Positions 2,122 through 48,928 of a stretch of DNA of 61,135 nucleotides are shown here, one piece after another (the stretch's first letter is position 1; the number at the start of each line of letters is the position of its first letter). The notes beneath the pieces were generated by a model. It did no database searches, was not told the origin of the DNA, and saw nothing but the letters and a program-made list of their open reading frames with translations. The DNA is taken from sequence record PQ561393. One strand, written 5' to 3'. The stretch is from Escherichia phage Ec1-ASingh. The translations under genes and the position numbers were made by a program.

Positions 2122-5100
2122 ATGGCTGATGCAGCTGATATCGTCATCCGAGTTAGAACAGACGGGGTCGCCGGTGCGGACGCTGCGTTACGCCGTCTGC
2201 AACAAACTGGTGTCCGCGTTGAGACAGTCAGCGCCAGAGTAGAGAATGGCTTCCGACGTACTGCACAGAGCGCCGAATTCTTCCATACGTCTGTCAGCGC
2301 CGTTAATACTGTAATGACTGCAACCGCTATCCTGGCCTACGTGGGCGGGTTGGCGAAGCTGTCGGATGCGTGGACAGATGTAACAAACAAATTAGCGAAC
2401 GCCAACTCCGCGCATGAAGGCATGGCGGTGATCCAGGAACGTGTGTTCAATATTGCACAGCGCACTCGTACCAGCCTGGAATCGACGGCCACCCTGTATG
2501 CACGTATGGAGCGATCCCTTTCTCAGTACGGGGTGACAGGCAAAGAGGTTGCACAGATCACTGAAACGATTAACAAATCGATGATTGTGTCTGGTGCAAC
2601 CAGTGCGGAAGCAACGGCAGCGATTATCCAATTCTCACAGGGTCTGCAATCGGGTGTCCTGCGCGGTGACGAATTCCGTTCTGTAATGGAACAGGCCCCG
2701 CGTCTCGGCAAGATGATCGCAGACGGTCTGGGCGTGGGCACTGCTGGCCTGCGCGAGATGGCGAACACCGGCAAACTGACCGCTGATGTGGTCATCAATG
2801 CTATCTCCAGGGCTTCAGGTACTATCGACGAAGAGTTCGGTCGTACTATGCCTACCTTTGCACAGCGCTGGGCGATGGCAACAAACAACGTTGAACGATT
2901 TGCAGGGACTTCCGTGCAGGTGCAGTCCGTTGTCAAAGCGATGGGCGATGGTGTAGAGCTGCTGTCTAATAACCTGGGCACGTTGACCACAATCGTTACA
3001 GGCGTCGTTGCCGCGGTTGGCGGTAAGATGCTTGCGGCGCTTGGGTCGCAGGTAGTTGCAATGATTCGGCTTTCCGCAGTGCAGGCAAGTAGCTCCGCTA
3101 TCAATATTAAGATGGTGGATGCAATTACCCGCTCCAGTGTCGCACGCTACAATGAAGCACAGGCTACATTAGCACAGGTTGCAGCAGAACGCACCAGGAT
3201 CCAGGCTGCACTCGCTGCGAACCAGCAATATTATAAGGGCATTGCGACGACGAACGCCCTTATGCAGAATACCCGCCAGGCTCGGGAGGCTACCGTCGCA
3301 GCAGCGGCGGCACAGGCCACGATGTCCACCGCGATGGGTACTGCTGCCACTGCGAGCCGCGTGCTTACCATAGGCCTTACAGGGTTGCGCACGGTTATGG
3401 GTTTCCTGGGCGGCCCGTTGGGTCTGGTGCTTCTCGCTGCGACTGCATGGTATACGTACAGCCAGAACGCCAAACAGGCGACGCAAGATTCTATAGATCT
3501 TGCAAGCTCGCAGGAAGATCTTAAAACAAAACTCGAGTCGCTGAACCTTGTACAGCAACGTGCTCTTGAAGTCCAGCTCCAGCGTGCAGGTGTAACACTG
3601 GCAGAAAACATTGCTGCTGAGAAAAGAGAGCTCGCGGAACTTAATAACCGCTTGAGCACTACCAGCACAGTGATGGCCCAGAACGAGGAAGGGACTCGAG
3701 CCTGGAACAGTGCTTACGAAGCTCACAAACAACTTACGGGCGATATTGCTATTAAGCAAGGTGAACTTTCTACGCTGGAAGAAAAGGCAATCCAGATTAA
3801 GAACAACCTTGCAACGGTTCAGGATAATCTGCGCAATGCTGTAATGGGCTTAACTGGTGCTATCGTTGCGCAGAACCAGGCGCTTGACATTAACATCAGT
3901 TCCGCGGCAGGTCGTTCTAAGGAACTCCAGGCTGCACTGGTAGCACAGAATGCCGAGCTAGATATCTCTAACATGAAGTTAGCAGGTAACAAGCGAGGCG
4001 CGGCACAGTTACAGGACGCACAGAACCGCCTCGGTAAGCAGTACGCAGCAAACGAAGACTTTATTAAGAACTATATTAGCGGTCATCAAGACGCTATGGC
4101 TGTCTTGACCGACGAGCAGCAAGGTATCGTAGAGTTCCTTAATAAATCTGGTCAAGCCTATGACGCACAAGAAAAGCTCCAAGAAAAGCTCAAGGCAGGA
4201 CGTCAAGCTCTGAAGGACGAGAAAGCTCTTGCGGCTTATGGGGAGCAGTGGGACAAGGCTTACGAACGCGTCGAGGCCCGAGGTGCTACAGGTTTAGACC
4301 GTTTGCGCATTCAGCAGGAAGCAGAAGTCCGTATTATGAAGGACAAAGCAGAGAAAGCTAAAGCGACCGAAGAGGAACTCGGTGCAGCCCTTAAAGCAAT
4401 CGATGCTAAATATGCGCGTCAGCGTGCAGACCTTGCGGGGCAGTATAAGCCTGGCGCCCAGATGGTGCGTGAGTGGCAGATTGCACAGCAGGAGATTAAA
4501 CAGCTCCACGAAGCTGGTCTGCTGGATGATGCACAATACAACACCGCGAGACTGAACCTATCCGCGGAGTATTACCAGAAGCGTGCAGCGATGTCTACGC
4601 TCAACCCGTTCCAGCAGTCGGAAGACACTAAACGGTCGGAGATGGACGCTCTGCAAGCGCAGTACAATACTCAGCTCCAGATGGCAGAAGGTAATGAACA
4701 ACAGCTCACTGCCATCAAAGAGAACTACGAGAAACAGCGTTACGACATTCAGATGAAGTATGCGCAGCAACAGGCGCAGGCGCAAGCACAGACTACGCTG
4801 TCCTATATCCAGAGTGTAAGCACGATTGCAGACAGCATGGCGGGCATACTTGAAGCGGCAGGAGCTAAATCCTCAGGGGCTTACAAAGTTATGTTCGCGA
4901 TGTCAAAAGCATTCTCCATTGCACAGGCGACGCTTAGTTTGAGCACAGCTATCGTCCAGGCTATGGCTGACCCGTCCGCCCTTACCCCTGCGCAGAAGTT
5001 TGCTAACTACGCCGCTGTAGCTGCCGCAGGTGGTGCGCTGATACAACAGATTATGAGCGCTAGTTTGACAGGTATGGCACACGACGGTATCACCCAAGTG

Positions 5101-17340: not shown

Positions 17341-17789
17341 TATTTCACCTCCAGTCGAGCTGGGATAATAAGATCCACTGACCAGCTTGTCAATTCAACT
17401 TCGTTTGGAAGAGTGGGTTCACCCCATACATAATATTTCTTTAAAGGCCATCCCCTTATTGGGTCGAGAATACGGATGTTTCCCTCGAACGTTGATAGCG
17501 CAAGGATAGCGTGAGTCCCACCTTTCATATTAAGTGACGGCGTTGTCAAGATAAAAATCGCATCCCCAAATATTGTATTTTTTCGAGGGTGGCCGTAGCT
17601 GTATGGAATTTTGTATTCGTCCAGAATATCATCATACCACTCGCCTTTATCTCTTTTATAATACAGGCGCTCATGAAACTCATTATAGGCTTGATCCGCG
17701 GACAATCCAACAATCATCCCCATACAAGTAGCCATGCAAGAGTCGGGGGTTGGTTGCATTAAATGCTGCATCATCATTACCTCAATCAA
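17340..17789 (-). CDS. Peptidase C39-like cysteine peptidase domain protein
   Basis: QPTPDSCMATCMGMIVG (Q-x5-C-x3-C-LAM-like) and later HAILAL..ILDP, matching the C39 Gln/Cys/His/Asp arrangement; paralog of 48133..48594. Confidence 0.5.
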   Translation of the reverse strand: MIEVMMMQHLMQPTPDSCMATCMGMIVGLSADQAYNEFHERLYYKRDKGEWYDDILDEYKIPYSYGHPRKNTIFGDAIFILTTPSLNMKGGTHAILALSTFEGNIRILDPIRGWPLKKYYVWGEPTLPNEVELTSWSVDLIIPARLEVK

Positions 17790-18693
17790 ACAAATCGTGG
17801 AGACGCTCGTTGAACCGACCGTTGTGGTTAGCGAGTATCATAGCGTTGACCACACCGTAGGCCCACAGATTAAACGCTGCGCGGCTTTCATATATGGTTG
17901 ACAGGCGCTCGTAAGTGAAACCGTTCTCTTCTAAATATCGGAGAACGTTGTTTTGTTCTGTTTCTGAAAGATTACAAATATGCTGCCCTTGGGCGTGCCT
18001 TGAAGGAGATTTTTCAGAGACCTGCATTGGTCCCCATTTAGGTGTTTCAATAGCGCCGAAAGCGGCTGACTGAATCCAAGAGGATGAGTCGCATGAATAC
18101 CACGGATATCGTTCCATAAGCGGGCGGGAAGTAATCCCAAATCCATGCACTTTGATTTTAGCTCGCCCGCTTCCGTCCACCAAATGTTTATCCCACACTC
18201 TGTCCAACCAAACCTGGAGTTGCTGGGTACTTGCCCCAACCAATCCTCCAAGAGTGATGTAATCGTAATTGGCGACGTAGTGGTCGAGGTACTCGAAGGG
18301 TTCGTTGGCGTGGAAGCAGGGGAGGGGACGCACTCCGCGTAACTCCATCTCTTGCTGGTTTCGCCAAGTCTGTAAGGGGTCTCCGATTCCATCGAGGACT
18401 GACGCCATAAGGTTTCCGTCTTCAACCCGAATAATGTCTCTGTTCCGCTCGATATAGGCGCAGTATTCTTTAACTGAGAGTGTAACTCCGAGGGTAAAAG
18501 CAGAGAATGCTCCGGAATCGAGAAATATTCTTGCCTTGTCCGCTCGCATTGCATCAACATAGGATTGTTGCCCAACGTAGTGCCAGGACTCGAGAATATT
18601 TGGGATATTGCGCACGAGATTTTGTTCATGCTCGGTAAGTTTGACATAACGGTTCATCCCAGGCTTGTAACTGTTTGTGTAAACAGCGGCCAT
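17782..18693 (-). CDS. dpdA: DpdA-like DNA-guanine transglycosylase (TGT family)
   Basis: TGT-like FLDSGAF motif and (beta/alpha)-barrel-like pattern; start at ATG 18693 because a terminator hairpin lies inside the longer ORF-track version. Confidence 0.6.
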   Translation of the reverse strand: MAAVYTNSYKPGMNRYVKLTEHEQNLVRNIPNILESWHYVGQQSYVDAMRADKARIFLDSGAFSAFTLGVTLSVKEYCAYIERNRDIIRVEDGNLMASVLDGIGDPLQTWRNQQEMELRGVRPLPCFHANEPFEYLDHYVANYDYITLGGLVGASTQQLQVWLDRVWDKHLVDGSGRAKIKVHGFGITSRPLMERYPWYSCDSSSWIQSAAFGAIETPKWGPMQVSEKSPSRHAQGQHICNLSETEQNNVLRYLEENGFTYERLSTIYESRAAFNLWAYGVVNAMILANHNGRFNERLHDLFD

Positions 18694-18734
18694 ATAAATT
18701 TGGAAGGTATAATCACATTCAGCTTTGTACACTT

Positions 18735-18772
18735 TTCGCTCCAAACAAAATAAGCGCCCGTAGGCGCTTATT
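18735..18772 (-). terminator. Terminator between folE and dpdA
   Basis: Hairpin aataagcgcc-cgta-ggcgcttatt with U-rich run on minus transcript. Confidence 0.4.
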
Positions 18773-18905
18773 ATAGTACGTTGTGTTATTTGATTGCTAC
18801 ATGAAGCACAGTAACAGAGCGACAAGACTCCACACTGCAATCCAAGTGACCTTTCCACAACGATACGCAGGATTAATAGTCGTGTACTCCACAACGTATT
18901 TCATA

Positions 18906-19526
18906 TTAAGCCTTATGGCACAATGCCAGGAACTCTGCGCGGGTCTGCGGCTCGTCCTTTATCGCACCGCGGAGAGCAGTCGTAACAGTGTGGTGACCAT
19001 GCTGACAAACTCCGCGAGACTCCATACACATGTGACGAGCTGTGATGTAAACACCCACACCAACAGGCTCGAGATGTTCTTGGATTGCATCTGCGATATT
19101 GTTGGTAAGCCGTTCCTGAACCTGTAAACGTCGAGCAAAGGCATCAACAACACGATTGAGCTTACTAAGACCAACAATGCGGCCGGACGGAATGTAGGCA
19201 ACAGTAGCGTGGCCAAAAATGTCGGCCATGTGATGCTCACATTTACTATAGAAAGGAATACGCACAACCGCAACCATCTGGTCGGCACCTTCTGCTCCAT
19301 CTTCGAACACCTTAAAGAGCCCAGGGATATCCACGGCGTAACCGCCAAACCAGTGTTCAAACGCTTTCGCAACACGGGTTGGCGTTTCAAGCAAGCCCGG
19401 GCGCAGTGGGGCATCGCTATCGCCAGATTCAATAATGCCCAGGATCTCTCCCATACGGTCAGCGATCTGGACTCGGCACAGCTCGAGTTGAGTACGTTCC
19501 ATCATTTCGTGTATCCTACATGGCAT
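18906..19526 (-). CDS. folE: GTP cyclohydrolase I
   Basis: CEHH zinc motif, ATVAYIP..GLSKLNRVV..FARRLQVQERLT, HxC..RG; near colinear with bacterial FolE. Confidence 0.9.
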   Translation of the reverse strand: MPCRIHEMMERTQLELCRVQIADRMGEILGIIESGDSDAPLRPGLLETPTRVAKAFEHWFGGYAVDIPGLFKVFEDGAEGADQMVAVVRIPFYSKCEHHMADIFGHATVAYIPSGRIVGLSKLNRVVDAFARRLQVQERLTNNIADAIQEHLEPVGVGVYITARHMCMESRGVCQHGHHTVTTALRGAIKDEPQTRAEFLALCHKA

Positions 19527-20026
19527 TTGGAAGTTTCTTCAATGGTGCATTTTACAAGCTCTACACCGTGTTCGTCCAGCAGGCGCGGGCCGATAACTTC
19601 GACCATATATGCAGCCAGGTTTTCAGCAGTCGGGTTAAACGGCAGCGATACCAAAGAATCGAAGAAATGGATTTCGTCTTTTGCTTCGATAAAGCCGGGG
19701 CGGTTGGAATCTTCAATCAAGCTGGCAATACCGGCTATCAGTTTGTCTTGTTCCCAATGCAGGAAGCGGTGATCCCAATTGGTTTCCAGCCACTCACAGA
19801 GAGTAGACTTAACCACACTGAAATCAATCACGCGGCCAATATTGTCCAGAGCAGCGGATCCAACTTCGTATTCTTTTGCAAGGGACTTGATTTGACCATC
19901 CAACTTCGGTGCAACGTGGAAGTGGAAGACGTAGTTGTGCCCGTGCAGGTGGCGGCACTTACTTTCATGGCCAACTACACGGTGGCCAGCGCAAATTTCA
20001 TGCGAACGGATTACTTCATAGCTCAT
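19502..20026 (-). CDS. queD: 6-carboxy-5,6,7,8-tetrahydropterin synthase
   Basis: CxxHxxxxH...CxxLHGH motif (ICAGHRVVGHESKCRHLHGH), NPTAENLA, C-terminal ETSKC; start set at ATG 20026 with RBS. Confidence 0.8.
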   Translation of the reverse strand: MSYEVIRSHEICAGHRVVGHESKCRHLHGHNYVFHFHVAPKLDGQIKSLAKEYEVGSAALDNIGRVIDFSVVKSTLCEWLETNWDHRFLHWEQDKLIAGIASLIEDSNRPGFIEAKDEIHFFDSLVSLPFNPTAENLAAYMVEVIGPRLLDEHGVELVKCTIEETSKCHVGYTK

Positions 20027-20463
20027 TAGAATTTCTCCGCGTGTTTGTCGTACGCATCGTTGATTAATTTGGTAAAACAATCGTTGTGCTCGCTCCAGAT
20101 TGTCTGCCCCATGCTTTTAGCAACAAGATGATAGGAATTTGTTGCATCGTCTTGAAATACACTAACGACTACATCTGACCCGTTCTGAACGTAACCAATT
20201 AGGGCTCTAAACTTCTCGAAGACGCCTTTTTCTTTAGGATCTCCAGCCAGACGTGACAGCAGTGACTTGACAGTGGGCTCGTATTCGGGCCAGTCCTGCT
20301 CGATAAAAATACCTTCAACTTGCTGTTTCCCGTCAGCTTTTCGACCGTCAGCGACTGCGTTTGCAAGATCTTCGAGTTGCTCTTGCTGGTCACGGGTAAG
20401 GTACTTTTTCACATCCTTTAACTTAAAAGTCAGATAGCGGTGTTCGAAACGTTTATCCTTCAT
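20026..20463 (-). CDS. Hypothetical protein within 7-deazaguanine module
   Basis: 145 aa from ATG 20463; no recognisable motif. Confidence 0.4.
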   Translation of the reverse strand: MKDKRFEHRYLTFKLKDVKKYLTRDQQEQLEDLANAVADGRKADGKQQVEGIFIEQDWPEYEPTVKSLLSRLAGDPKEKGVFEKFRALIGYVQNGSDVVVSVFQDDATNSYHLVAKSMGQTIWSEHNDCFTKLINDAYDKHAEKF

Positions 20464-20725
20464 TTTCTGCCTGCTCCATAAATTCACGGTACTTGCGAAC
20501 GCACTCGTCTTTACTACGGGACGCAAAACAGCGCCAGCCGTTGTCCAGCTTGTACGACCAGTAAAAGGCACCAAAGCGGTTCTTCATTTGCTTAGTTACG
20601 CAGACGCTCTGCTTCAGCATCGGGTTCTGAGACTTAATAAACGCAGCACGTTCAGATTGTGACAGCATTTCATATGCCTCCCGTTGCATGTTAGCATACA
20701 TCATTTCACGGAAATTCATCTTCAT
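20453..20725 (-). CDS. Hypothetical protein within 7-deazaguanine module
   Basis: 90 aa ORF. Confidence 0.4.
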   Translation of the reverse strand: MKMNFREMMYANMQREAYEMLSQSERAAFIKSQNPMLKQSVCVTKQMKNRFGAFYWSYKLDNGWRCFASRSKDECVRKYREFMEQAENEG

Positions 20726-20759
20726 AAGAAGCTCCTGGACGTCCCTGTCCGGTTGTTAG

Positions 20760-22190
20760 TTATTGTTCATCCAGATAGTTAATTACCTCTGGCGCGTTAT
20801 TAATACTAAACGCAGTCCGTCGCATCATGCAAGGGCCACACGTACCGCAATGCAGGTCGCCGTTCTTATAACAGCTCCACGTATGGGCCAACGGTGCTCC
20901 CTGCTCGAGCCCCAGGGCCACGATCTCGTGCTTCATTAAGTTACCCACAGGCATGAGCACCCGCACGCGCTTACCGTCGCCTACAGCGAACGGTAATAAC
21001 GCATTAAAGCGGTTAATGAACTCGGGTTCGTTATCGGGGTAGGCGCCCGCTTCTTCCAGGTTATTACCCAGCACGATGTAGTCAAACCCTTTCGCTTCTG
21101 CGTAGGCAGTGGCGACAGACAGCATAACCAGATTACGAGCAGGAACCCACTCATGAGCGAATTCCGCGCCCGCTTCTCCGCCTGCAATTGTTGCAGTGTG
21201 GTCAAACAGGGGACTATCTGATGGGTCGTAAATGGGAATCGGGAAAAGGACAAGTGGCACCCCCATCGCTTCAGAAATTTCTTTAATTGCTTTCAGCTCA
21301 TGCTCTTCAGCACGGCAGCCGTATTGGAAGTTAATAAGGGTTACTTCCATGCCCTGATTTTTGCACACCTGCGCGGCAACGGTGCTATCCAGGCCCCCAC
21401 TAGCAACGACCAGCGCCCGCGGAGTTTTCTTCTCGTCTAGAAAAAAGCCCCGTCGGTCCAGATCTGTGGAGTGCCCACACACCATGTTACAGGTATACGG
21501 TTCTTGCATCTGAGGTACGCAGTTATGCGGCAGCATGGACGCTTCGCTCGCTAACCACACACCAGAATCGTTCTTCCCAATCCAGATCGGGCGGTAGTTA
21601 CACGCAGTGAAAATAAATCCAGGCGCGTCTTCGTGTGTTGCCAGAATTGCGTAACTCCCTTTCAGGCGCGAAATAGCTTCCACGAAAATGTCATAGATCT
21701 GGTGGTGGAGCAACGGTTCTTCCGGTTCCGGAGTTAGCTCGCACAGCAGTTCAACGATCGCAGCACTATCAATTTCACTTTGGTGAGGTCTCGGTCTGGT
21801 GCGCGAACGCAGTTCTTTATCGTTTGCGATAGTACCGTTGTGAACGATAGCCCACGGGCCGAGTGCATACGGTTGCTGGTCATACCCGTTCTTTTCTTTC
21901 ACCCATTCGGTAGTCGGTTCAGCGCGTGCATTACCGATGAGGGTTACAGGGCAACGGTGAAGCGTGGCGTGTTGGACGATGTCCTGCATGGTGCAGTTAT
22001 GCAGGTAGGACCCAGCTTTTTCCGTTGTCATACACTGATACGAAACGTAAGGTTTTGGCAGGTGCGTAATTCGCGCGCCAATACCGTCGCGCCCGCGGTT
22101 GATAGCACCGCGTACCATGTCGTCAGCCATAACGCGCAAACGATCTTTATCGACAATGCCGTTAGTTACAAATCCAAAGATTGAGCACAT
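20760..22190 (-). CDS. queC: Gat-QueC: class-II glutamine amidotransferase fused to QueC (7-cyano-7-deazaguanine synthase-like)
   Basis: N-terminal MCSIFG (Ntn Cys nucleophile, as in AsnB); C-terminal SGGLDS PP-loop, VPARN, YPD, CYxxxxxHCGxCxxC zinc motif as in QueC. Confidence 0.85.
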   Translation of the reverse strand: MCSIFGFVTNGIVDKDRLRVMADDMVRGAINRGRDGIGARITHLPKPYVSYQCMTTEKAGSYLHNCTMQDIVQHATLHRCPVTLIGNARAEPTTEWVKEKNGYDQQPYALGPWAIVHNGTIANDKELRSRTRPRPHQSEIDSAAIVELLCELTPEPEEPLLHHQIYDIFVEAISRLKGSYAILATHEDAPGFIFTACNYRPIWIGKNDSGVWLASEASMLPHNCVPQMQEPYTCNMVCGHSTDLDRRGFFLDEKKTPRALVVASGGLDSTVAAQVCKNQGMEVTLINFQYGCRAEEHELKAIKEISEAMGVPLVLFPIPIYDPSDSPLFDHTATIAGGEAGAEFAHEWVPARNLVMLSVATAYAEAKGFDYIVLGNNLEEAGAYPDNEPEFINRFNALLPFAVGDGKRVRVLMPVGNLMKHEIVALGLEQGAPLAHTWSCYKNGDLHCGTCGPCMMRRTAFSINNAPEVINYLDEQ

Positions 22191-22504
22191 AAGATATTTC
22201 CTTCAATTGGTGAATGTGGACACCATGCAATGATCCCGTTAGATGGCGGAGTCACTGACGTGTTGTAGGTTATTTTAACACGGGCGCTGCTGACATCTGT
22301 GTTGATTATTACAGTACCGTCCTGCAGAAGTAAATCAACACCATAACCCGCACGCAATACAGCCAGCAAGCCTTTTACGGATATATCCTGCATGGGCATT
22401 GATCTGCTGTGAAATCTACAGACAACCTCGTTATATCCCTCTGGGCGTACCGGAAACACCTCTTTGAGGATATCAACTCGAGTTTTTGGGGCTGGTGTGA
22501 ACAT
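22166..22504 (-). CDS. Hypothetical protein within 7-deazaguanine module
   Basis: 112 aa ORF between queE and gat-queC. Confidence 0.4.
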   Translation of the reverse strand: MFTPAPKTRVDILKEVFPVRPEGYNEVVCRFHSRSMPMQDISVKGLLAVLRAGYGVDLLLQDGTVIINTDVSSARVKITYNTSVTPPSNGIIAWCPHSPIEGNILCAQSLDL

Positions 22505-23205
22505 TATTCCACCTCTAAATATTTGTGGACCTGTAATTGCACAATATACCCGTGGAGCTGGCAGGAAGCAACTACCGCCTGGATGTTGCGCTTGTTAGCG
22601 GCCGCATCTTGTTCGTCCATAGGTTGCAGGTAAATAGGGCCGCGGTAGTACGACGGCGGACGGGCGATGTGTGGTGTGGCGCGGTGCATAAGAGCCTGCA
22701 ACGGTAAACCGTCTTCCTCACGCATGTTGCCTGCCTGCAGCACGTATTTAAAGGCGTTTGCGCGGGCTGCTACGCTTGGATGAATCTTAGCTGCTTTCGG
22801 GCTGCAAACGACTGTTGCTTCATGGTGTAGCTCCAGTGGGATCTGCATTGTGCCGTTCGTTTCAATCTGAACTTTAAACCCCTTCGTATTAATCAACCAG
22901 TTAATCAGGTTAACCACTTCGGGTTGGCGGAAAGGTTCACCGCCGGTAATAACAATCAAACTGGTTTTAGCGTCACCGCGCTTCGCACGTACCTCGTCCA
23001 GGATTTGATGGTGCATCATGCGCTGGCGCCCTTCAGTGTACTCGGTGTCACAACCAGGGCACTGAAGGTTACAACCTGCTAAACGGATGAATACTGCCGG
23101 GTGACCACAATAAGGGCCTTCGCCTTGTATCGTGTGAAAAATGGAGTGGACATCCAAATGATAGCCGCGATCAATTTTCTCAGGTTCCTGAGTATTTAGT
23201 TTCAT
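22504..23205 (-). CDS. queE: 7-carboxy-7-deazaguanine synthase (radical SAM)
   Basis: IQGEG...PAVFIRLAGCNLQCPGCDT matches QueE Cx14CxxC-type cluster motif; start at ATG 23205 (a terminator hairpin lies inside the longer ORF-track version); alternative start 23268. Confidence 0.8.
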   Translation of the reverse strand: MKLNTQEPEKIDRGYHLDVHSIFHTIQGEGPYCGHPAVFIRLAGCNLQCPGCDTEYTEGRQRMMHHQILDEVRAKRGDAKTSLIVITGGEPFRQPEVVNLINWLINTKGFKVQIETNGTMQIPLELHHEATVVCSPKAAKIHPSVAARANAFKYVLQAGNMREEDGLPLQALMHRATPHIARPPSYYRGPIYLQPMDEQDAAANKRNIQAVVASCQLHGYIVQLQVHKYLEVE

Positions 23206-23279
23206 AGTATGTTCTCGATTGATGATGCGTAACGCTTGAAGGTATGACAAATGAAGGATAGCGGACATAAGAACCTCGG

Positions 23280-23312
23280 GGTAAAGATAACAAAGGGGTC
23301 GTAAGACCCCTT
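23280..23312 (-). terminator. Rho-independent terminator
   Basis: Hairpin aaggggtc-gtaa-gacccctt (same stem as terminator at 1194) followed by U-rich run on minus transcript. Confidence 0.5.
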
Positions 23313-23335
23313 CTGAGTTGCCGAGTTTGTACTGA

Positions 23336-24190
23336 TTACTCTGCGGACTGGTTGCCGTCCTGGCCTTCAGCTGCCGCCGGTGCAGGGATACTGACGCTGG
23401 CTGCGGCTGCTGCAATGTTAGCAGGAACCGGAACAGCGACGCGACCGCTGATACCGTGATATTTTTTCCAGCGAGCGTATTCGGCTTTCACGTTGGCTTC
23501 GTTCAGGCCTTTTTCCAGCGCCACCGGCAGCACGTAGGAAATCGGAGCGGTCTGGCCCATCGTGGTAGAGATGGCGTCGAACAGATCCCATGCAGCGCGG
23601 CACAGGGTGCCCACGGACGGTTTACGGATACCGTTCTGCTCGGGTTCTTTTTTCGCTTCGCGTTCCTGGCGCTTACGTTCAGCTTCCGCTTCGCGGTCAG
23701 CTTTTTCTTTCGCCTTTTTCTCTTCACGGGCTTTCTTATCCAGTTCAGCCTGTGCAGTTTTAGCGGCGTCCAGCTTTGACTTCAGATCTTTACCGGCCTG
23801 CTCGATCTGAGCCACCAGGCCTTCAGATTCGGTCACAGCCTGTTTCAGCGCGGTGCTTTCTTTTGCCTTACGGCCGGCAGCTTTAACAACCTTCAGACCT
23901 TCTTTAGCAGTCTTCAGGTTATCAGCGATAGCAGTCTGCGCGGATTTAACGTCTTCAACGGTGGAAGTTTCGTTCAGCGCACCGACAACGGCGTCAACGT
24001 TCGCTTTCGCGGAAGTGATGGTGTTATAACCGCCAGTCGCTTCAGTGATAGCGTCTTTTTCTTTCTGCTCCGCAGCTTCTTTAGCGCGACGTTCAGCGTC
24101 GGCCTTCTTCTGCTGTTCAGTCTTTTCAGCCGCTTTCTTAGCGGCTTCTTCCGCCTGGATCTGCTCTTTGGTTTTTTCTTTGCCAGCCAT
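23336..24190 (-). CDS. Lys/Glu/Ala-rich coiled-coil protein
   Basis: Start at ATG 24190 with RBS GGAG; highly charged low-complexity middle, structured C-terminus. Confidence 0.45.
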   Translation of the reverse strand: MAGKEKTKEQIQAEEAAKKAAEKTEQQKKADAERRAKEAAEQKEKDAITEATGGYNTITSAKANVDAVVGALNETSTVEDVKSAQTAIADNLKTAKEGLKVVKAAGRKAKESTALKQAVTESEGLVAQIEQAGKDLKSKLDAAKTAQAELDKKAREEKKAKEKADREAEAERKRQEREAKKEPEQNGIRKPSVGTLCRAAWDLFDAISTTMGQTAPISYVLPVALEKGLNEANVKAEYARWKKYHGISGRVAVPVPANIAAAAASVSIPAPAAAEGQDGNQSAE

Positions 24191-28223: not shown

Positions 28224-28285
28224 GATACCCTCTGCTTAGAAAAATACAGCGCCCTGAGGCGCTGTAAAATTATACACCAGTTTTA

Positions 28286-43390: not shown

Positions 43391-43574
43391 TGGCAACCTC
43401 CTTAATACGTATGCGCACACATTACATTGACGGGCCGGCCGAACGCAATAGAGGTGACCACATTAAAGGTTAGTGCTTGAGATACAGTGTGGTCATGCTC
43501 GCCTCACAGACCCTCATGCGCAATCGGGGGGAGAGTGAATTTTTATGGTGCCCACTTTTAGAATTTGAGATTGT

Positions 43575-43629
43575 TAGCTGGCTATAGAAATATTTTTGCT
43601 GTTTATGCGAGATTGTATAGCTGGCTATA
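43575..43629. repeat. Direct repeat pair (g)attgt-tagctggctata, 43 bp apart
   Basis: 12-bp tagctggctata at 43575 and 43618. Confidence 0.6.
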
Positions 43630-43669
43630 TTGAGTTTTACAGGTCTAAATGTGCGTTGGCAAATTTTGT

Positions 43670-43985
43670 TGTAGGCTGTAGTAGACGTGTAGTAGGCGAT
43701 CTACTACACAAATAAAATATGGCGAAACCCGCGGCAGTGCTGGGAAATTTTGGCTCACAGCTCCGACTTGCACTGGCTGTAGTACGCGTTAAAGGGGTAT
43801 CTCGTAATACGCCAGCTAATAATTAGCCAAGTTAACGATTATTCTATAATAAAAAAAAAACATACTACATATACTACATATATATTTAGATACTCTCTAC
43901 AAACCCTGAAAACTCTCGCTTTTCGCGAAAATATTCCCGTTAAATCGCCCCCTACTACAGCGTACTACAGCCTACTACAGACCGA
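43670..43985. repeat. Iteron cluster: 9 copies of TACTACA / TGTAGTA
   Basis: Copies at 43678, 43688, 43702 (forming inverted repeat gtgtagtag-gcgat-ctactacac), 43778, 43863, 43872 and three tandem 10-mers cNtactacag at 43951-43980. Confidence 0.65.
43849..43860. other. A-tract (A12) within AT-rich segment
   Basis: ataataaaaaaaaaa flanked by AT-rich sequence between iteron copies. Confidence 0.6.
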
Positions 43986-44175
43986 GTCCGTGCCTGGGCG
44001 TGTGCGGACGGGCATAGCGCCTGCGTGCGTCTGCCCGCGCGTTATTAGCACATATTAAAACGGATTGCAAGCGATTATTGCGCTCGATGTGAAATCGGGC
44101 AAGCGAAATTGGATTTTTGTGGAGCAAAAACGATTCTATTTTATAGCAAAATATTCGGTAATTCAGACAATCCGC

Positions 44176-44285
44176 CTGCTAGTTATCAGATTGCTGACCA
44201 TCAGACTGCTAATTATTAGGTTGCTAACGATATGCAGCTAATGATCCGCCAGCTAACCATTAGAAGGCTAACGATTAGAACGCTA
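44176..44285. repeat. Tandem array of ~7 degenerate 14-16 bp repeats (consensus yTGCTAAyNATyAGA)
   Basis: ctgctagttatcaga / ttgctgaccatcaga / ctgctaattattagg / ttgctaacgatatgca / gctaatgatccgcca / gctaaccattagaa / ggctaacgattagaa. Confidence 0.6.
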
Positions 44286-44579
44286 TGGGATTTTTGCGGG
44301 TGTTTAAAGGGTGTTGGGTAGGGGTGCATAATCCCGAAAATAGCGCTCACTTTTCGGGGTTGTAGGCCGCGTTATACGGTTGCCGGTAGGGTAGCGAGGG
44401 TTAGGGGCTAAAATCGCTTAAAATCGCGCACAGCGCCTTTGGTTGCGTCGCTGTAAGGCAATATAAGCCGGACTGATTTGGGTCTGTAGGTTAGTATTGA
44501 CTGAAAGGAAGGCGGCTTACAGGGCGATACAGCGAAGGAACTAACGTGGTCAAGCTCGGAAGGTGGGGTGTTTTGGGGT

Positions 44580-44617
44580 GTAATAAACGTGAAAAACCCG
44601 TTGGATATCAACGGGTT
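44580..44617 (-). terminator. Rho-independent terminator ending the early minus-strand block
   Basis: 9-bp stem aacccgttg / caacgggtt, loop gatat, then U-rich run on minus transcript. Confidence 0.55.
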
Positions 44618-44643
44618 ATCAACTGTATAATGCAGTTAGAGGT

Positions 44644-44889
44644 TTATTTGATAGCTAACAATACCGCATAGCTATTATCTGGAAGCGTACCAGTACCAAC
44701 AATCTTCACCGGGCGACTTGCGCGAGCGTTGTAGCGGTCAACCAGCTCTTGCGCCGCGTAGGCGGCATTCGCTTCGCCGTTGAGGTTGTAGTCGTTGGGG
44801 GTAACGACGCACATATCAAGACCAGATGCCTTATAGCGCAGACCTTTCGTGCCGGTGGCAGACAGGGTTTTCACATGAATCGCTTTCAT
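44644..44889 (-). CDS. Hypothetical early protein
   Basis: 81 aa ORF. Confidence 0.45.
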   Translation of the reverse strand: MKAIHVKTLSATGTKGLRYKASGLDMCVVTPNDYNLNGEANAAYAAQELVDRYNARASRPVKIVGTGTLPDNSYAVLLAIK

Positions 44890-45236
44890 TTGACTTCCTC
44901 CGACCAGCGTTTGCAGTTCTTAAGCAGGCTAATGAATCCAGCCAGTGTGGATGCGGTGCAAGCGATGCGACCGAAAGCTCGAAGCTCGGCAAACACCTTG
45001 CCACTATCCCATACGGTTAACAAAATTTTGTAGCCGTAGCAGTTTACACGGTAGAGAACATAAATGTCGCTCGGGTTAGGGTTAACGCGAGCAACAATGG
45101 CAGTCTTGTGCAGCTTGAACATCCAGGACCCAATGATACGGCGAGTGATAATTGACTGGCTAACGATACTAGACATAATAGTTACCTGTGTGGTTATGCG
45201 GGAGTGCATAATAATGCTCACCGGATAGATGAGCAC
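44886..45236 (-). CDS. Hypothetical early protein
   Basis: GTG start at 45236, alternative ATG at 45209. Confidence 0.4.
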   Translation of the reverse strand: MLIYPVSIIMHSRITTQVTIMSSIVSQSIITRRIIGSWMFKLHKTAIVARVNPNPSDIYVLYRVNCYGYKILLTVWDSGKVFAELRAFGRIACTASTLAGFISLLKNCKRWSEEVK

Positions 45237-45245
45237 GATATGAAC

Positions 45246-45533
45246 TCACTTGATAGTGACCGAGCAGCCGAAGCCTTCGAGCTGGGCTTTCATTGTCATC
45301 ATCGCCTGCATATGTTGTACGGCGGTTTGCGTGGATGCCGGTTCTGTTGTCAAGACATACTTGTCGCCACCAAGAAAATCGGTAGCCACCTGAATATTGA
45401 CAGTTGGAAGGTGTGCGTACACGAAGCCATCACGAAACAGCTCGTGGGCGGTGATGTCATGGTTGCGTGACATCAGATGCGCAGCAGTGGACAGGAAAGC
45501 GTGAGACAGACGAACTTCGATAACAGTTTTCAT
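45246..45533 (-). CDS. Hypothetical early protein
   Basis: 95 aa ORF. Confidence 0.45.
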   Translation of the reverse strand: MKTVIEVRLSHAFLSTAAHLMSRNHDITAHELFRDGFVYAHLPTVNIQVATDFLGGDKYVLTTEPASTQTAVQHMQAMMTMKAQLEGFGCSVTIK

Positions 45534-45610
45534 GGTAACACCTTATTTTGAGAAGTAGAGACCCGCGAACAGCGGACCGGCGAACACGATAAACGCAGCG
45601 ATGTAGTACA

Positions 45611-46081
45611 TCATTTTGCCACCGCGTGGAATTTACGCCAGCCGTAGAACTCAATGGTGGCGTTGTTCAGATTCCACCCCTTCTGAGCTGCCAGTTCACG
45701 AACCACATGAATGTCAATCTCAAAACCCTGCTTTTTGATGTCGTCAAGCGTTGACCAAACTTCAGCGCATTTACCTTTAATCGGGCGACGCACACCATTG
45801 CGAATTTCGCTGCGCACCTTAGACGCTTTAGGCGCTTCCGGCGCGGCAGGTGCAGGCACCGCAACGGTGGCGATTTTGTCTGCCGCGATAGACGGGTTAG
45901 CTGCGCGGTTGACAGCCGCTTCGCTGAACCAGTAACGACCGCCGTCTTCGAGTGCTTCGAGGTTAATGAGCGAGTTTGCTACTTCGGTAGAGCAGTTGAA
46001 AATCTTTTTCAGAGCGCGACGCGCGTTAGACATGTTGGTGAAGAATTTAGCATCTTTGGTCGGTTTGGTTACAGTTGTCAT
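45611..46081 (-). CDS. Hypothetical early protein
   Basis: Start at ATG 46081 with RBS GAGGG; ORF track extends to 46171. Confidence 0.45.
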   Translation of the reverse strand: MTTVTKPTKDAKFFTNMSNARRALKKIFNCSTEVANSLINLEALEDGGRYWFSEAAVNRAANPSIAADKIATVAVPAPAAPEAPKASKVRSEIRNGVRRPIKGKCAEVWSTLDDIKKQGFEIDIHVVRELAAQKGWNLNNATIEFYGWRKFHAVAK

Positions 46082-46152
46082 TTTTAAACCCTCATTTTGT
46101 TCTAGCGATAGTGCTAGTGGAAGCACACTCAGCGAATGTGCAACCATTAGAA

Positions 46153-46338
46153 CTATTCGGTCAGTAAACAAGCAGGCAGTGAACCTAATTGCTGTACTGC
46201 GAACTTGTAAAACTCTACCATTTCGGTATCACCCATTCGCTGCGCTTCTGCGCACAGTTCAGGCAGAACGTCGCGAGCGCGTGAAACTGCTACAGACAGC
46301 GCGTAGACTTGGTCTTCGGTGAACTGCAATGTAACCAT
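46153..46338 (-). CDS. Hypothetical early protein
   Basis: 61 aa, first ORF downstream of divergent non-coding region. Confidence 0.4.
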   Translation of the reverse strand: MVTLQFTEDQVYALSVAVSRARDVLPELCAEAQRMGDTEMVEFYKFAVQQLGSLPACLLTE

Positions 46339-46465
46339 TTTGTAACCCCTTATTTCTGTGTTTTGCTGCTGTGTTTATATAGTAGCAGAACTAGAACTAA
46401 TGTCTAACTTTGTATTGTAAAGTAATGTAAAGGCACTACTACGTTAGGTCCATGGTGTATGGGTG

Positions 46466-46477
46466 CATGGGCCCATG
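46466..46477. repeat. 12-bp perfect palindrome catgggcccatg
   Basis: Self-complementary sequence in G-rich non-coding region. Confidence 0.6.
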
Positions 46478-46486
46478 GAGTGTGGA

Positions 46487-46517
46487 GGGTGTAGGCACGC
46501 TCAGGGTGTAGGTACGC
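46487..46517. repeat. Direct repeat gggtgtagg(c/t)acgc x2
   Basis: 14-bp units at 46487 and 46504. Confidence 0.6.
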
Positions 46518-46519
46518 AA

Positions 46520-46536
46520 GGGGTGGGCAGGGTGGG
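46520..46536 (+). other. Canonical G-quadruplex motif GGGG-T-GGG-CA-GGG-T-GGG
   Basis: Four G3+ tracts with 1-2 nt loops on plus strand within a 120-bp G-rich stretch. Confidence 0.5.
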
Positions 46537-47106
46537 CTCAGGTATGGTGGGGTAGGTATAGCACGCACACGCGTCTAGCATGTTTACGTATTAGATGCAA
46601 CTAATATCTTAAGTCTTCTGTAGCAAAAAGTGCTAAATCGAGATCGGCGCGAATCTATGCTAGGGTACAAGGTAGAGGGTAAAAGCGCCTACAGCGCCTT
46701 ACAGCGCCCTATAGCATAGGTGTATACATGTACAGGACTATGCAACAATCATACCAACATGCGGATGCACTATAGTAGTGCATGTGTGTACACATATCTA
46801 TACAGACAAAGAAAGACAAACAATCTAATCAATGTATGTAACAATAAGCATACTAATTAATAGACAAGCTATCGGTCACACGGCGTGACTATCACCTCAC
46901 CGATGATCAGCGATGCAACTGATAACGCCGCCGCGGCCTCCTGGTAACGTATCTCGCTTTCGTCTTACCAAGATTGAGTCGCCAGTAGGCACCCACACGC
47001 ATCCGTTTCGTCAGTAGACAAACTATCAAGTGGACTGTGCCACCTCACCCATCATAAACTTGCCCGTACCTGTTATTTCCATGTGTAAATACTCGAGAGG
47101 TGTACC

Positions 47107-47334
47107 GTGCATATTCCGCTGACTTTACTGTATCTTTCCATCCTGTACTTCGTTTTCCAGAGCGTGCTCATTGCTGCTGGCGTAACCGTTGGCACCGTGT
47201 TTGTCGTGTACGCACTTGTCGTGCTGCTTACTAAGGATGATGCTAAATCCCTGCGTTACACCTGCAACGTTCTTAGTTTGCTTGTCATAGTGGTGCCATG
47301 CCTGACGATCCTATGGGATTTCTACACGGAGTAA
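47107..47334 (+). CDS. Small membrane protein (2 TM)
   Basis: GTG start with RBS GAGAGG; two hydrophobic helices. Confidence 0.45.
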   Translation: MHIPLTLLYLSILYFVFQSVLIAAGVTVGTVFVVYALVVLLTKDDAKSLRYTCNVLSLLVIVVPCLTILWDFYTE

Positions 47335-47423
47335 TGTGGTCACTAGAATCAACTTGCACGGTATTTAAATCCGCGTTAGTTCCCTGCTATAGTTAGTCTG
47401 CAAACAACAAAGGGGGAACTAAA

Positions 47424-48133: not shown

Positions 48134-48594
48134 TGCGCAGAATTGTACATCAGACGCAGCCGACCCCGTTGTCGTGCATTGCTACGTGCCTGGCTATGCT
48201 CGTTGGCCGTAAGGCTCATTTCGTCGACCAGGAGTTCACGCAGGATTACGGGCAGCAAAAAGTCGACGTCCCAATGGCCCTGGCTCCGTTTAATATCATG
48301 TGTAAACCACAGCTGGCGGCGGGCGTCCATCAGCTTGCAACGGGGTCGCTGTACCTTGCCACTGTACCGTCGCTCATGAGTGCGGGCCTGTTCCACCAAA
48401 TCATTATCGACACACGGTCTGGAAAGGTTGAAGTCTTCGATCCTGGCCAGGGTGTTAGCAAAACGACGCAGTATTATGTCCCTCCGGAGTCGCCAACGCT
48501 CGACCCGGACAGTCAATTTTATGATCCTTTGGCGTTTCCATTGCGGACGTGGATCTTGGACTATGAACTGGTGATATTGGACGATGCCGACTAA
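48133..48594 (+). CDS. Peptidase C39-like cysteine peptidase domain protein
   Basis: QPTPLSCIATCLAMLVG and HQIIID...VFDPGQG; same Gln/Cys/His/Asp arrangement as C39 bacteriocin-processing peptidase domains; paralog of 17340..17789. Confidence 0.5.
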   Translation: MRRIVHQTQPTPLSCIATCLAMLVGRKAHFVDQEFTQDYGQQKVDVPMALAPFNIMCKPQLAAGVHQLATGSLYLATVPSLMSAGLFHQIIIDTRSGKVEVFDPGQGVSKTTQYYVPPESPTLDPDSQFYDPLAFPLRTWILDYELVILDDAD

Positions 48595-48928
48595 TCATAG
48601 AGTTCCATATTTTACAAGATACGAAGACGCTAAGGCCTACGCCCAGGCCTTAGCGGATCGGTGCAGGACACCCGACCGCACGCGCTATGTCGCACTAGCA
48701 TGGGCGAATCGTTGGGCCGTGGGTACTAAGAAGCAGTTAGAAGATCTCGGCCTGGGGCCGCTGGTGCCGCTGTACAGCCGGCAAAACGTGCGCATGAAGC
48801 AGGAGGAGCAAGCACAGATTTTCGCATACTGGAACCAGTGTGGGAATATTAAAAAGACAGCTACGAAGTTTGGCGTGTCATACGGCAAGGTATATCATAT
48901 CGTTCGTTTAATGAGGAACAAGAAATGA
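48584..48928 (+). CDS. HTH DNA-binding protein
   Basis: C-terminal IKKTATKFGVSYGKVYHIV helix-turn-helix-like segment. Confidence 0.45.
   Translation: MPTNHRVPYFTRYEDAKAYAQALADRCRTPDRTRYVALAWANRWAVGTKKQLEDLGLGPLVPLYSRQNVRMKQEEQAQIFAYWNQCGNIKKTATKFGVSYGKVYHIVRLMRNKK

Follow-up and report, generated by a model that had tools for sequence, protein, structure and literature searches.

The closest described counterpart of the locus examined here is the control and packaging region of the Nonagvirus phage 9g. For its 603-bp intergenic region, two divergent promoters, Pl and Pr, have already been proposed (PMC4276943), and the terminase cut at nt 28243 was mapped via the starts of sequencing reads (Kulikov et al., 2014; PMC4276943) and again by run-off sequencing and restriction mapping (Tsai et al., 2017; PMC5567051). 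Tsai et al. interpret the 9g data as headful packaging that begins at a pac site, not as the result of fixed terminal repeats (PMC5567051). When we checked the 9g sequence record, C28243/T28244 and a BglII site 2 bp away agreed with the published coordinates. The records of phages HdK1 and HdSG1 (MK373794 and MK373795; Korf et al., 2019; PMC6563267) carry exact terminal repeats of 3367 and 3363 bp, respectively, whose right ends fall at the same base (between GGCGGCTC and TTAGATCTC) and coincide with the mapped 9g cut. In the Pseudomonas phage iggy, the terminal repeat comprises 1091 bp (PMC10484667).

The DNA analyzed here (referred to as the window) consists of 61,135 nucleotides of Escherichia phage Ec1-ASingh (PQ561393), a Queuovirinae siphophage related to Nonagvirus 9g, and its assembly is of the collapsed circular type with no duplicated end. 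Between a minus-strand ATG at position 46338 and a plus-strand GTG at 47107 lies a gap of 768 bp (46339-47106). An earlier note on this DNA had described the gap as non-coding and as parting the minus-strand early from the plus-strand late genes; this description holds, the gap is the sole early/late divergent junction in the genome, and all the features that had been listed for it were found where they had been placed. The nearest matches are two Klebsiella phages, which are 92-94% identical across the gap region, and relatives turned up across a large number of public sequencing runs and assembled metagenomes, several of the contigs being of full genome length. We counted conservation over 15 distinct related sequences, including those labelled L007, L008/L009, L024, L030, L031, and L036.

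Synteny places the gap opposite the 603-bp intergenic region that 9g, JenP1, and SE1 possess; HdK1 and HdSG1 are syntenic here as well. In the window as in 9g, the position is at the only divergence of the early from the late/lysis arm, 130-170 bp ahead of the first rightward gene, and another large non-coding region lies about 2-3 kb to the left; the genes for TerS, TerL, and 7-deazaguanine synthesis are orthologous. The two regions differ in length (603 bp in 9g versus 768 bp in the window). The function that the earlier note passed over is the one that homology makes most likely, namely that of the terminase cut (pac) site and terminal-repeat boundary of Nonagvirus phages. Taken as a whole, the gap is probably where a 9g-like (Queuovirinae) phage combines its central control and packaging functions; it is composed of modules that differ strongly in constraint, and the terminase cut would be located in its right third.

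Conserved right block and predicted terminase cut

The most conserved block of the gap spans positions 46888-47106 (0.92-0.98 identity; plus strand). It exceeds most of the neighboring coding sequence in conservation and represents the sole part of the gap common to all 15 relatives; L007 and the Logan contig L023 share only this part of it. We suggest that the terminase recognizes and cuts the DNA in this right third, and that the rightward operon has its proximal promoter and leader farther downstream in it.

Homology to Nonagvirus can be detected directly in this region of the genome. Positions 46875-46909 match 9g in a blastn search with 86% identity (E 1e-4) right beside the mapped cut, and positions 47041-47100 match SE1 with 77% identity (E 1e-4). 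The first of these segments includes ATCACCTCACCGATGATCA (46891-46909, plus strand), the Nonagvirus form of which is ATCACCTCACYGACGATCA; its 9g counterpart is positioned directly upstream of the pac repeats. The anchors GTCACA, ATCACCTCACYGAYGATCA, TAACGCCGC, the second CACCTCACC, and TAAATACTCGAGAGG are collinear in both genera, and both possess a GC-rich dyad just before the cut. In the window this is the 8-bp palindrome GCCGCGGC (46930-46937), 3 nt before the predicted cut. It reads GCCCGGGC in five of the 15 relatives, a paired change by which palindromy is kept, and the dyad GCCGC-GGG-GCGGC occupies its place in 9g.

Alignment to nt 28243 of 9g predicts the initiation cut of the terminase, and with it the right end of a terminal repeat, between positions 46940 and 46941 (with a margin of 5 nt to either side; 46936-46945). 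The predicted cut is positioned 166 nt before the GTG at 47107, the equivalent distance in 9g being 131 nt, and it aligns with the right end of the exact terminal repeats of HdK1 and HdSG1. While the 9g cut has been mapped physically, that of the window is placed near 46940 by homology only. The packaging enzymes are orthologous to the Nonagvirus terminase: TerS is 60-61% identical to the TerS proteins of SE1Kor, JenP2, and FritzHoffmann, and TerL is 80-90% identical to that of 18 records and 62% identical to that of iggy.

The window departs from 9g at the pac core. The 12-bp core of the latter, SRYCRCGGGRCG, which is present there in two 21-bp repeats, is not conserved; it is absent at 46890-46945 even when up to two mismatches are allowed, its matches genome-wide are fewer than expected from shuffled sequences, and the homologous 12-mers differ from the 9g core at six and four positions (counted by eye on the alignment). 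Chi sites that might protect a DNA end were not found either, there being no GCTGGTGG in or near the gap, and the contig ends of metagenome assemblies were uninformative as a proxy for the termini. A search of IMG/VR with ATCACCTCACCGAYGATCA recovered three true relatives, while the hits in L016 and L019 were chance matches in coding sequence.

Downstream of the predicted cut, TGGACT-N18-TAAACT (47031-47060, plus strand) is a candidate for the proximal rightward promoter. It is a weak match (rank 220) and is nearly invariant in the 15 relatives, nine of its 30 positions varying, mostly in one sequence. Its spacer contains the second CACCTCACC (47041-47049), and 9g has the same layout (CACCTCACC-N5-TATATT). 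A strong rightward sigma-70 promoter was not found before 47107. The segment TAAATACTCGAGAGG (47088-47102, plus strand), conserved in both genera, contains the Shine-Dalgarno sequence of the 75-aa gene that starts with the GTG at 47107.

That the gap conceals a gene for a small protein, or else a non-coding RNA with a defined structure, is an explanation to which we give very little credence. Several ORFs of 30-54 aa are present, three of which, at 46897-47029, are open in six relatives; the equivalent region of JenP1 contains an annotated CDS, and base pairing is conceivable between the CCUC of the first CACCTCACC and the GAGG of the Shine-Dalgarno sequence. However, the ORFs of the G-rich and AT-rich segments are interrupted by frameshifts and stops in relatives, and none of them is kept. 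The three open ORFs lie in a block with hardly any variation, where they overlap each other in different frames; the few substitutions in them are amino-acid-changing, and they possess neither a Shine-Dalgarno sequence nor a Nonagvirus counterpart. Since the ORFs are either broken in relatives or overlap while accumulating amino-acid-changing substitutions, the region has to be regarded as non-coding, and this conservation analysis led us to reject a hidden gene, the outcome that the earlier note had named as fatal to its own reading. With respect to RNA, RNAalifold gives a consensus of -9 kcal/mol over 267 columns, which is weak, and single-strand folds are no better than those of shuffled sequences (z -1.3 to +0.3). 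Rfam yielded nothing at the gathering score and, at E values up to 1, just a meaningless miRNA match (mir-3149, E 0.76); a search for tRNA and tmRNA found none.

Candidate leftward promoter, dyads, and the AT-rich middle

The left third of the gap (46339-46557) would provide the leftward immediate-early operon with its leader and with a sigma-70-like promoter. According to the ORF list, the first leftward (early) gene is a 61-aa ORF (46153-46338), with a homologue annotated in K9PH25C2 and Kpn2-P2; positions 46339-46378 (minus strand) make up its 5' untranslated leader together with the ribosome-binding region. Next to this leader, TAGACA-N16-TGc-TACTAT (46379-46406, minus strand) is a candidate for the early-left promoter, P_L1; it is the best sigma-70-like match in the gap and ranks 57 genome-wide. 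Relatives carry TAGACA or TAGCAT, a spacer of 16 nt, and TACTAT or TATTAT at this position, such that the substitutions in both hexamers stay promoter-like. Just upstream of P_L1 lies an A/T-rich, UP-element-like tandem of GTAATGTAAA (2.1 copies; 46412-46432), in which ATTGTAAAGT..TGTAAAG shows no variation in five relatives. For the divergent promoters that the earlier note deemed likely, there is the 9g precedent of Pl and Pr, and the leftward candidate is plausible and conserved; the best rightward match is weak, and the number of sigma-70 promoter matches does not exceed that of shuffled sequences.

The middle of the gap (46558-46870) combines operator-like dyads and a 10-bp tandem repeat with an AT-rich stretch that carries promoter-like elements in both directions. 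A first candidate operator, the box GTATTAGATGCAACTAATATCT (46588-46609) with its dyad TATTAG-N6-CTAATA, is common to 9g, where it overlaps the leftward promoter TTGCAT-N17-TACTAT; the box is unique in the window (0 expected), and the dyad is present in 11 of the 15 relatives. A second one, the dyad TAGCA-N5-TGCTA (46621-46635) within the invariant stretch CAAAAAGTGCTAAATCGAGATCG, is likewise unique in the window (0.07 expected) and was found in exact form in 11/15 relatives; L007, which was scored negative for this region, has GCAAAAAGTGCTA upstream of another early gene. Tandem Repeats Finder detected a 10-bp repeat, AGCGCCTTAC (2.6 copies; 46684-46708), which corresponds to the TACAGCGCC repeats at 46690 and 46700. 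In their stead, 9g carries ATACCAGGTA repeats (consensus ATACCAGGTARC) with a spacing of 27 nt. The AT-rich segment (46740-46870) has the second-lowest GC content of the genome (31.7% at 46748). Within it, GCACTATAGTAGTGC (46768-46782) can be read as a -10 element in either direction, and TAGATA-N17-TACTAT (46800-46772, minus strand) is another candidate for a leftward promoter.

Iteron-like repeats beside an AT-rich unwinding element might also be expected of a replication origin. Tandem repeats are indeed found on either side of the 120-nt stretch that ranks second in AT content genome-wide, in a non-coding region at which transcription diverges. Still, we consider an origin at this site unlikely, since the gap contains no DnaA boxes, the repeat and AT-rich modules are missing from L007, which retains only the sequence from 46888 onward, and the cumulative GC-skew minimum is found at 43-44 kb, away from the gap; on these grounds, the presence of the repeats and of the AT-rich stretch notwithstanding, the gap does not fit an iteron-type origin. 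The second non-coding region is the better origin candidate because it has more repeats and the lowest GC content of the genome (25.8% at 43817).

The G-rich array and its G4 motif

Conservation within the gap is lowest (0.57-0.63) in a G-rich tandem-repeat module at 46440-46559 (plus strand). This module is lineage-specific, variable, and indel-prone, measuring 67 to 136 nt depending on the relative, and L007 lacks it altogether. The module comprises a 17-nt unit, AGGGTGTAGGCACGCAA, present in 2.4 copies at 46486-46525 (Tandem Repeats Finder), a 15-nt unit present twice at 46531-46559, and the direct repeat GGGTGTAGGYACGC (46487-46500 and 46504-46517). G accounts for 46% of positions 46440-46560, and the G-richest 120-nt stretch of the 61 kb (47.5% G) begins at 46454. 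This array is specific to the Klebsiella-phage lineage; at the equivalent place, Nonagvirus genomes, 9g among them, are C-rich rather than G-rich on the same strand, the strand polarity hence being opposite. Given that plus-strand G-richness is kept in 12/15 relatives (G4Hunter score of at least 1.4), there may be some selection on base composition or on G-tract binding sites.

Two elements of the module had been singled out in the earlier note as a possible regulatory switch or recognition site. The first is GGGGTGGGCAGGGTGGG (46520-46536, plus strand), and the G4 prediction recommended there as a check did identify it as a canonical motif, with loops of 1, 2, and 1 nt and the top G4Hunter score of the genome (1.76). 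Canonical G4 motifs occur three times on the plus strand of the genome and not at all on its minus strand, against 0.31 expected from second-order Markov simulations, and four of the six G4Hunter regions that score at least 1.5 are on the plus strand in the two non-coding regions. The second element is the perfect 12-bp palindrome CATGGGCCCATG (46466-46477). Comparison with related genomes, also recommended as a check, showed that neither of them is conserved. The window contains 17 perfect 12-bp palindromes, which is the chance level (about 15 expected), and CATGGGCCCATG is present in only four of the 15 relatives and reads CATGGGCGCATG in the two closest phages.

If the G4 motif folded, either as DNA or in a transcript, it could serve as a switch for the divergent promoters. 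It resembles canonical promoter G4 motifs in having four G-tracts (G3+N1-7), very short loops, and a location upstream of a promoter (110-180 nt from P_L1), and it is identical in the two closest phage genomes. It differs from them in being unconserved in close relatives, in its location on the strand that serves as template for the adjacent operon, and in the probable presence of 7-deazaguanine in the DNA. The exact motif is kept in seven of the 15 relatives; it was lost through single substitutions in the G-runs (L024 and L031), through deletions of 9 nt (L036), 34 nt (L008/L009), or 71 nt (L030), or through absence of the whole module (L007). Among 11 sequences checked, L030 and L036 contained no G4 even when loops of up to 12 nt were allowed, and a search of IMG/VR with the motif as a pattern gave no match. 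Furthermore, leftward transcription uses the G-rich strand as its template so that the resulting RNA is C-rich. We therefore regard the switch as highly improbable.

Modification of the DNA argues in the same direction. Like 9g, the window encodes FolE, QueD, Gat-QueC, and QueE, and the closest relative possesses a DpdA homologue annotated as queuine tRNA-ribosyltransferase; this gene set suggests that the phage DNA is probably partly 7-deazaguanine (dG+-modified), which would destabilize a G4. In 9g, about 25% of the dG is dG+, and the target motif of this modification is not known (PMC10484667). A single 7-deaza-G (c7G) in the core severely destabilizes or prevents an intramolecular G4 (PMC5664352). 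The predicted terminal repeat has plus-strand G-tracts in each of its non-coding arms (46503-46556, and three at 44299-44586). One could imagine that these arrays fold only on fresh, unmodified DNA, not after the insertion of 7-deazaguanine by DpdA, and in this way report the modification status to transcription or packaging; we give this idea a very low probability. The G4 motif and the palindrome are probably incidental, as they are unconserved even among close relatives. The array upstream of the leftward promoter would evolve by slippage, with the canonical G4 motif arising as its by-product.

A different role for the repeats is conceivable, one that is compatible with the packaging function of the gap. 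Phage or host regulators that tune the immediate-early promoter might have their sites in the G-rich array, in the TACAGCGCC repeats, and in the two dyads, the array then acting as protein-binding DNA and not as a G4. We put this forward tentatively. The repeats follow each other in tandem with regular periods (units of 17, 15, and 10 nt), the core CAGGGTG reappears in the diverged array of L008/L009, and in these same relatives both TACAGCGCC copies read TACAGGGGC, a joint change from CGCC to GGGC in the two TACAG repeats. CGCTGTA (5 of 20 occurrences versus 0.66 expected) and CTGTAG (8 of 28 versus 0.92 expected) are enriched in both non-coding regions; apart from this TACAGCG-type motif, the words common to the two regions are at chance level overall. 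Both dyads are unique in the genome, and a gene for a Mor-like HTH activator is located 1.5 kb rightward. On the other hand, slippage alone can yield concerted changes of tandem copies, the copy number of the array is variable, and the array is dispensable in L007 and mostly deleted in L030. The small early proteins adjoining the gap have no detectable DNA-binding domain; Pfam and PHROGs searches with the flanking small proteins gave no DNA-binding assignment besides that of the Mor-like 114-aa protein.

The predicted terminal repeat

With the gap as the packaging site, the terminase would cut concatemers there and package leftward, and packaging would stop about 3.15 kb past the next copy of the site, near 43790 in the second non-coding region. 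Virion DNA would carry a terminal repeat of about 3.15 kb, comprising the immediate-early operon and most of the gap. A tentative left end of this repeat, outside the gap, can be placed between 43789 and 43790 (43785-43806), where GCGT is followed by TAAAGGGGTATCTCGT. It resembles the left ends of HdK1 and HdSG1, which begin with ATAAAGGGGTCTCGT; the match is weak (E 6.7 when taken alone) but collinear. To the right of each predicted cut, at a distance of 8-9 nt, lies GTATCTCG, which has only three occurrences in the genome. At most, this hints at a recognition motif (RTCTCK, represented by GTATCTCG in the window) that the two cuts have in common on their right side; its offsets differ between the genera.

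The terminal repeats of HdK1 and HdSG1 likewise have their right end in the divergent gap and their left end in the second non-coding region, and consequently carry the small immediate-early genes. The sequence record of iggy also ends at the divergent junction. In contrast to these repeats, that of the window, extending over about 3.15 kb from 43790 to 46940, is only predicted. A comparable arrangement exists in phage T5, in which a terminal repeat of about 10 kb bears the pre-early genes (the first-step-transfer region) and repeat-rich non-coding DNA. In both cases the repeat would hold the first-expressed genes and be bounded by repeat-rich non-coding DNA; there is, however, no sequence or protein homology between them, and the repeat of the window would measure about 3 kb versus about 10 kb. 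To our knowledge, two-step DNA entry has not been reported for the Queuovirinae.

The gap does not imply a new type of system. In this 7-deazaguanine phage, a textbook G4 motif appears to be a by-product of slippage-prone repeats, and a variable one. For a widespread lineage of Klebsiella phages, our analysis predicts the physical ends of the genome, with a cut near 46940 and a repeat of about 3.15 kb that contains the immediate-early genes. Correct ends would be useful for genome maps, for engineering, and for the characterization of therapeutic phages.

The divergent junction and its genomic setting

The sequence corresponds approximately to a complete Queuovirinae siphophage genome, and its segment 46000-47500 is 92-94% identical to the Klebsiella phages vB_Kpn_K9PH25C2 and vB_Kpn2-P2. 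According to the annotation of these two phages, small genes, a late activator and the lysis, terminase and structural genes are grouped in one arm, and replication and 7-deazaguanine genes in the opposite one. As the earlier note had proposed, the gap at 46339-47106 separates minus-strand early genes from plus-strand genes; it is the sole divergent junction of the genome. It also proved to be non-coding when inspected for a missed protein gene: ORFs in its G-rich and AT-rich parts are not kept in relatives, where frameshifts and stops interrupt them, and the three that remain open (46897-47029) overlap in different frames within a nearly invariant block, their variable sites altering amino acids. 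An Rfam search of the gap gave no match and a tRNA search no hit; the consensus RNA fold across relatives is weak, and single-strand folds are no better than those of shuffles.

The lineage of phage Ec1-ASingh is common in public datasets, because near-identical relatives of the 156-aa early protein P0002, far more than 100 in number, turned up in assemblies of public sequencing runs and in metagenomes, many of them on contigs of 59-62 kb (longest listed, 64.8 kb). A 64,760-bp contig with a P0002 relative might include both terminal repeats.

The G-rich module, its G4 motif and the palindrome

All sequence elements previously named in the gap were recovered: the canonical G4 motif GGGGTGGGCAGGGTGGG (46520-46536, plus strand), the 12-bp palindrome CATGGGCCCATG (46466-46477), the direct repeat GGGTGTAGGYACGC (46487 and 46504) and the repeat TACAGCGCC (46690 and 46700). 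Tandem Repeats Finder resolved the repeats into arrays of 17-, 15- and 10-nt units. The stretch 46440-46560 is 46% G, and no other 120-nt window in the sequence is as rich in G as that starting at 46454. Three canonical G4 motifs occur on the plus strand of the genome and none on the minus strand, versus 0.31 expected, and the motif at 46520-46536 has the highest G4Hunter score in the genome (1.76).

We gathered 15 distinct versions of the gap, drawing on phage records, IMG/VR and metagenome assemblies. Constraint across them is very uneven and reaches its minimum (0.57-0.63) at the G-rich module. The exact G4 motif is present in seven versions; in other related sequences it has been lost by substitution (GGG to GGA in L024; CAGGG to CCTGG in L031), by deletion of 9 nt (L036) or 71 nt (L030) or through a 34-nt gap (L008, L009, L038), and in L007 all of 46351-46888 is missing. 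The G-rich array measures between 67 and 136 nt, a variation that tandem repeats prone to slippage would be expected to show. G-richness itself is kept among relatives (34-46% G), so that selection for base composition or for G-tract binding sites is possible. The equivalent place in Nonagvirus is C-rich on the plus strand. In four Nonagvirus genomes (L003, L004, L005, L014) the first leftward gene has a G-rich tract, GTGGGGTTAAGGGGGTTTTTAAGCGGGACACGGGT, in its 5' leader, on the RNA-sense strand; the tract has a plus-strand G4Hunter score of -1.5 to -1.8 and a polarity opposite to that of the Klebsiella-phage array.

For transcription of the adjacent operon, the strand that bears the G4 motif at 46520-46536 is the template, and the DNA of this phage probably contains 7-deazaguanine in part. 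A 7-deazaguanine cluster is present on the minus strand (18906-23415), comprising FolE (18906-19526), QueD (19502-20080), a Gat-QueC fusion (20760-22190) and QueE (22504-23415); a putative DpdA (17782-18894, minus strand) had no Pfam match at E up to 0.01. Through the same gene set, phage 9g has deoxyarchaeosine in place of about 25% of its dG (PMC10484667), and an intramolecular G4 is severely destabilised, or fails to form, when its core contains a single c7G (PMC5664352). Assuming random modification of some 25% of G, we estimate that about 3% of molecules would retain an unmodified 12-G core.

The G4 motif is real as a sequence, but its repeated loss in close relatives, its template-strand position and the probable presence of 7-deazaguanine speak against a conserved G4 function and against the regulatory switch suggested in the earlier note. 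The palindrome fares no better as a recognition site: perfect 12-bp palindromes number 17 in the sequence versus about 15 expected, which makes CATGGGCCCATG unremarkable, the site reads CATGGGCGCATG in the two closest phages, and the palindrome is kept in only 4 of the 15 versions. Both elements are most likely incidental.

Candidate promoters, operators and the second non-coding region

The gap holds candidate promoters in both directions. The best sigma-70 match is a leftward candidate (TAGACA-N16-TGc-TACTAT; 46406-46379) with an A/T-rich tandem just upstream, which L008/L009 retain in the form TAGCAT-N16-TATTAT or TACTAT; a second leftward candidate lies at 46800-46772. The best rightward match before 47107 (TGGACT-N18-TAAACT; 47031-47060) is weak, and promoter-like matches in the gap are no more frequent than in shuffles. 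This rightward candidate carries CACCTCACC in its spacer, a layout shared by 9g. Outside the gap, a good sigma-70-like promoter (TTTAAA-N18-TGc-TATAGT; 47364-47393, plus strand) between the genes for a 75-aa membrane protein and a 124-aa protein outscores every same-strand candidate within it. A 114-aa protein (48584-48928, plus strand) with weak Mor/HTH_28 matches, annotated in relatives as late transcriptional activator, is a possible regulator of late promoters.

Two genome-unique dyads are candidate operators: TATTAG-N6-CTAATA (46589-46606), inside a box shared with 9g, and TAGCA-N5-TGCTA (46621-46635). The TACAGCGCC repeats are altered in concert in L008/L009, and their CGCTGTA/CTGTAG core is common to the repeats of a second non-coding region. 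That the repeats in the gap serve protein binding is plausible, and compatible with a control and packaging region.

The second region (43393-44643; 1.25 kb) occupies a syntenic position in every relative and shows partial homology to 9g and HdK1 (E 9e-11). Its tandem repeats are CCTACTACAG (three copies; 43951-43980), ATACTACAT (2.3 copies) and a 15-nt GCTAAC-type unit (44252-44285), of which more degenerate copies begin near 44160. The region also includes the 120 nt with the lowest GC content in the genome (43817; 25.8%) and three plus-strand G-tracts with G4Hunter scores of at least 1.5 (44299, 44385, 44554). Just after the last immediate-early gene, a minus-strand hairpin, AACCCGTTG-ATATC-CAACGGGTT, followed by a T run (44595-44625), corresponds by homology to a terminator that the HdK1 and HdSG1 records annotate; a simple terminator scan made no call there. 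The cumulative GC-skew minimum falls at 43-44 kb, away from the strand switch at 46.3-47.1 kb, and skew is positive across the minus-strand genes at 44.6-46.3 kb, in contrast to the rest of that arm. The second region is a better origin candidate than the gap, where a replication origin is unlikely given the lack of DnaA boxes, the absence of the modules from L007 and the position of the skew minimum. No Chi sites were found within the gap or close to it.

The conserved block and the predicted packaging cut

The block 46888-47106 is conserved at 0.92-0.98, above most flanking coding sequence; it is the only part of the gap present in all 15 versions and also the part alignable with Nonagvirus. 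Positions 46875-46909 are 86% identical to 9g (E 1e-4), 47041-47100 match SE1 (E 1e-4), and the anchors GTCACA, ATCACCTCACYGAYGATCA, TAACGCCGC, a second CACCTCACC and TAAATACTCGAGAGG follow in the same order in both genera.

A sharp mosaic junction lies at 46887/46888: L007, with different early genes and a 380-bp gap, shares only the sequence from 46888 onward, and the independent Logan contig L023 begins exactly there. Some Nonagvirus genomes diverge directly past the conserved TAAATACTCGAGA (in JenP1 and HdK1, right after AAATACTCGAGA). The place of the first rightward small gene is taken in HdK1 by an HNH endonuclease gene (3536-4015) that comes next after TAAATACTCGAGA, an arrangement suggestive of a site for homing insertion within the gap; JenP1 likewise diverges after TAAATACTCGAGA, yet its annotated HNH gene (gp69) is elsewhere in the locus.

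In 9g, Kulikov et al. reported a read-start hot spot at nt 28243, within the 603-bp divergent gap, for which they proposed promoters Pl and Pr (PMC4276943). Using run-off sequencing together with restriction mapping, Tsai et al. verified that terminase cuts at 28243, described two 21-bp repeats ahead of the cut and inferred a terminal redundancy of about 3.0-3.2 kb (PMC5567051). The 9g record agrees with the published cut in C28243, T28244, a BglII site 2 bp away and the 473-bp spacing to the first early gene. Exact terminal repeats are present in the GenBank records of HdK1 (3367 bp) and HdSG1 (3363 bp); their right ends fall at the identical base, between GGCGGCTC and TTAGATCTC, and their left ends in the second large non-coding region. 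A fixed repeat of about 3.36 kb would also account for the DraI doublet at 8.4 kb in the data of Tsai et al., the sum of 5.2 and 3.36 kb being close to this size. Phage iggy, whose TerL is 62% identical, has 1091-bp terminal repeats (PMC10484667), and its record starts and ends at the divergent junction.

By alignment, the terminase cut is predicted at about 46940/46941. An 8-bp palindrome, GCCGCGGC (46930-46937), ends 3 nt before it; five of 15 relatives carry GCCCGGGC, a paired change that preserves the palindrome, and in 9g the dyad GCCGC-GGG-GCGGC occupies the corresponding position. The left repeat end is tentatively placed at about 43789/43790, between GCGT and TAAAGGGGTATCTCGT, which resembles the HdK1 end at ATAAAGGGGTCTCGT; this match is weak alone and collinear with significant matches nearby. 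Each of the two predicted cuts has the 8-mer GTATCTCG, which the genome contains three times, 8-9 nt to its right. TerS shares 60-61% identity with its Nonagvirus counterpart, and TerL 80-90% with 18 records. A defining feature of the 9g site, its 12-bp pac core, was not found here, which fits a diverged TerS; the recognition sequence must therefore differ. The gap is most likely a control and packaging region of the 9g type, not previously described in this lineage of Klebsiella phages.
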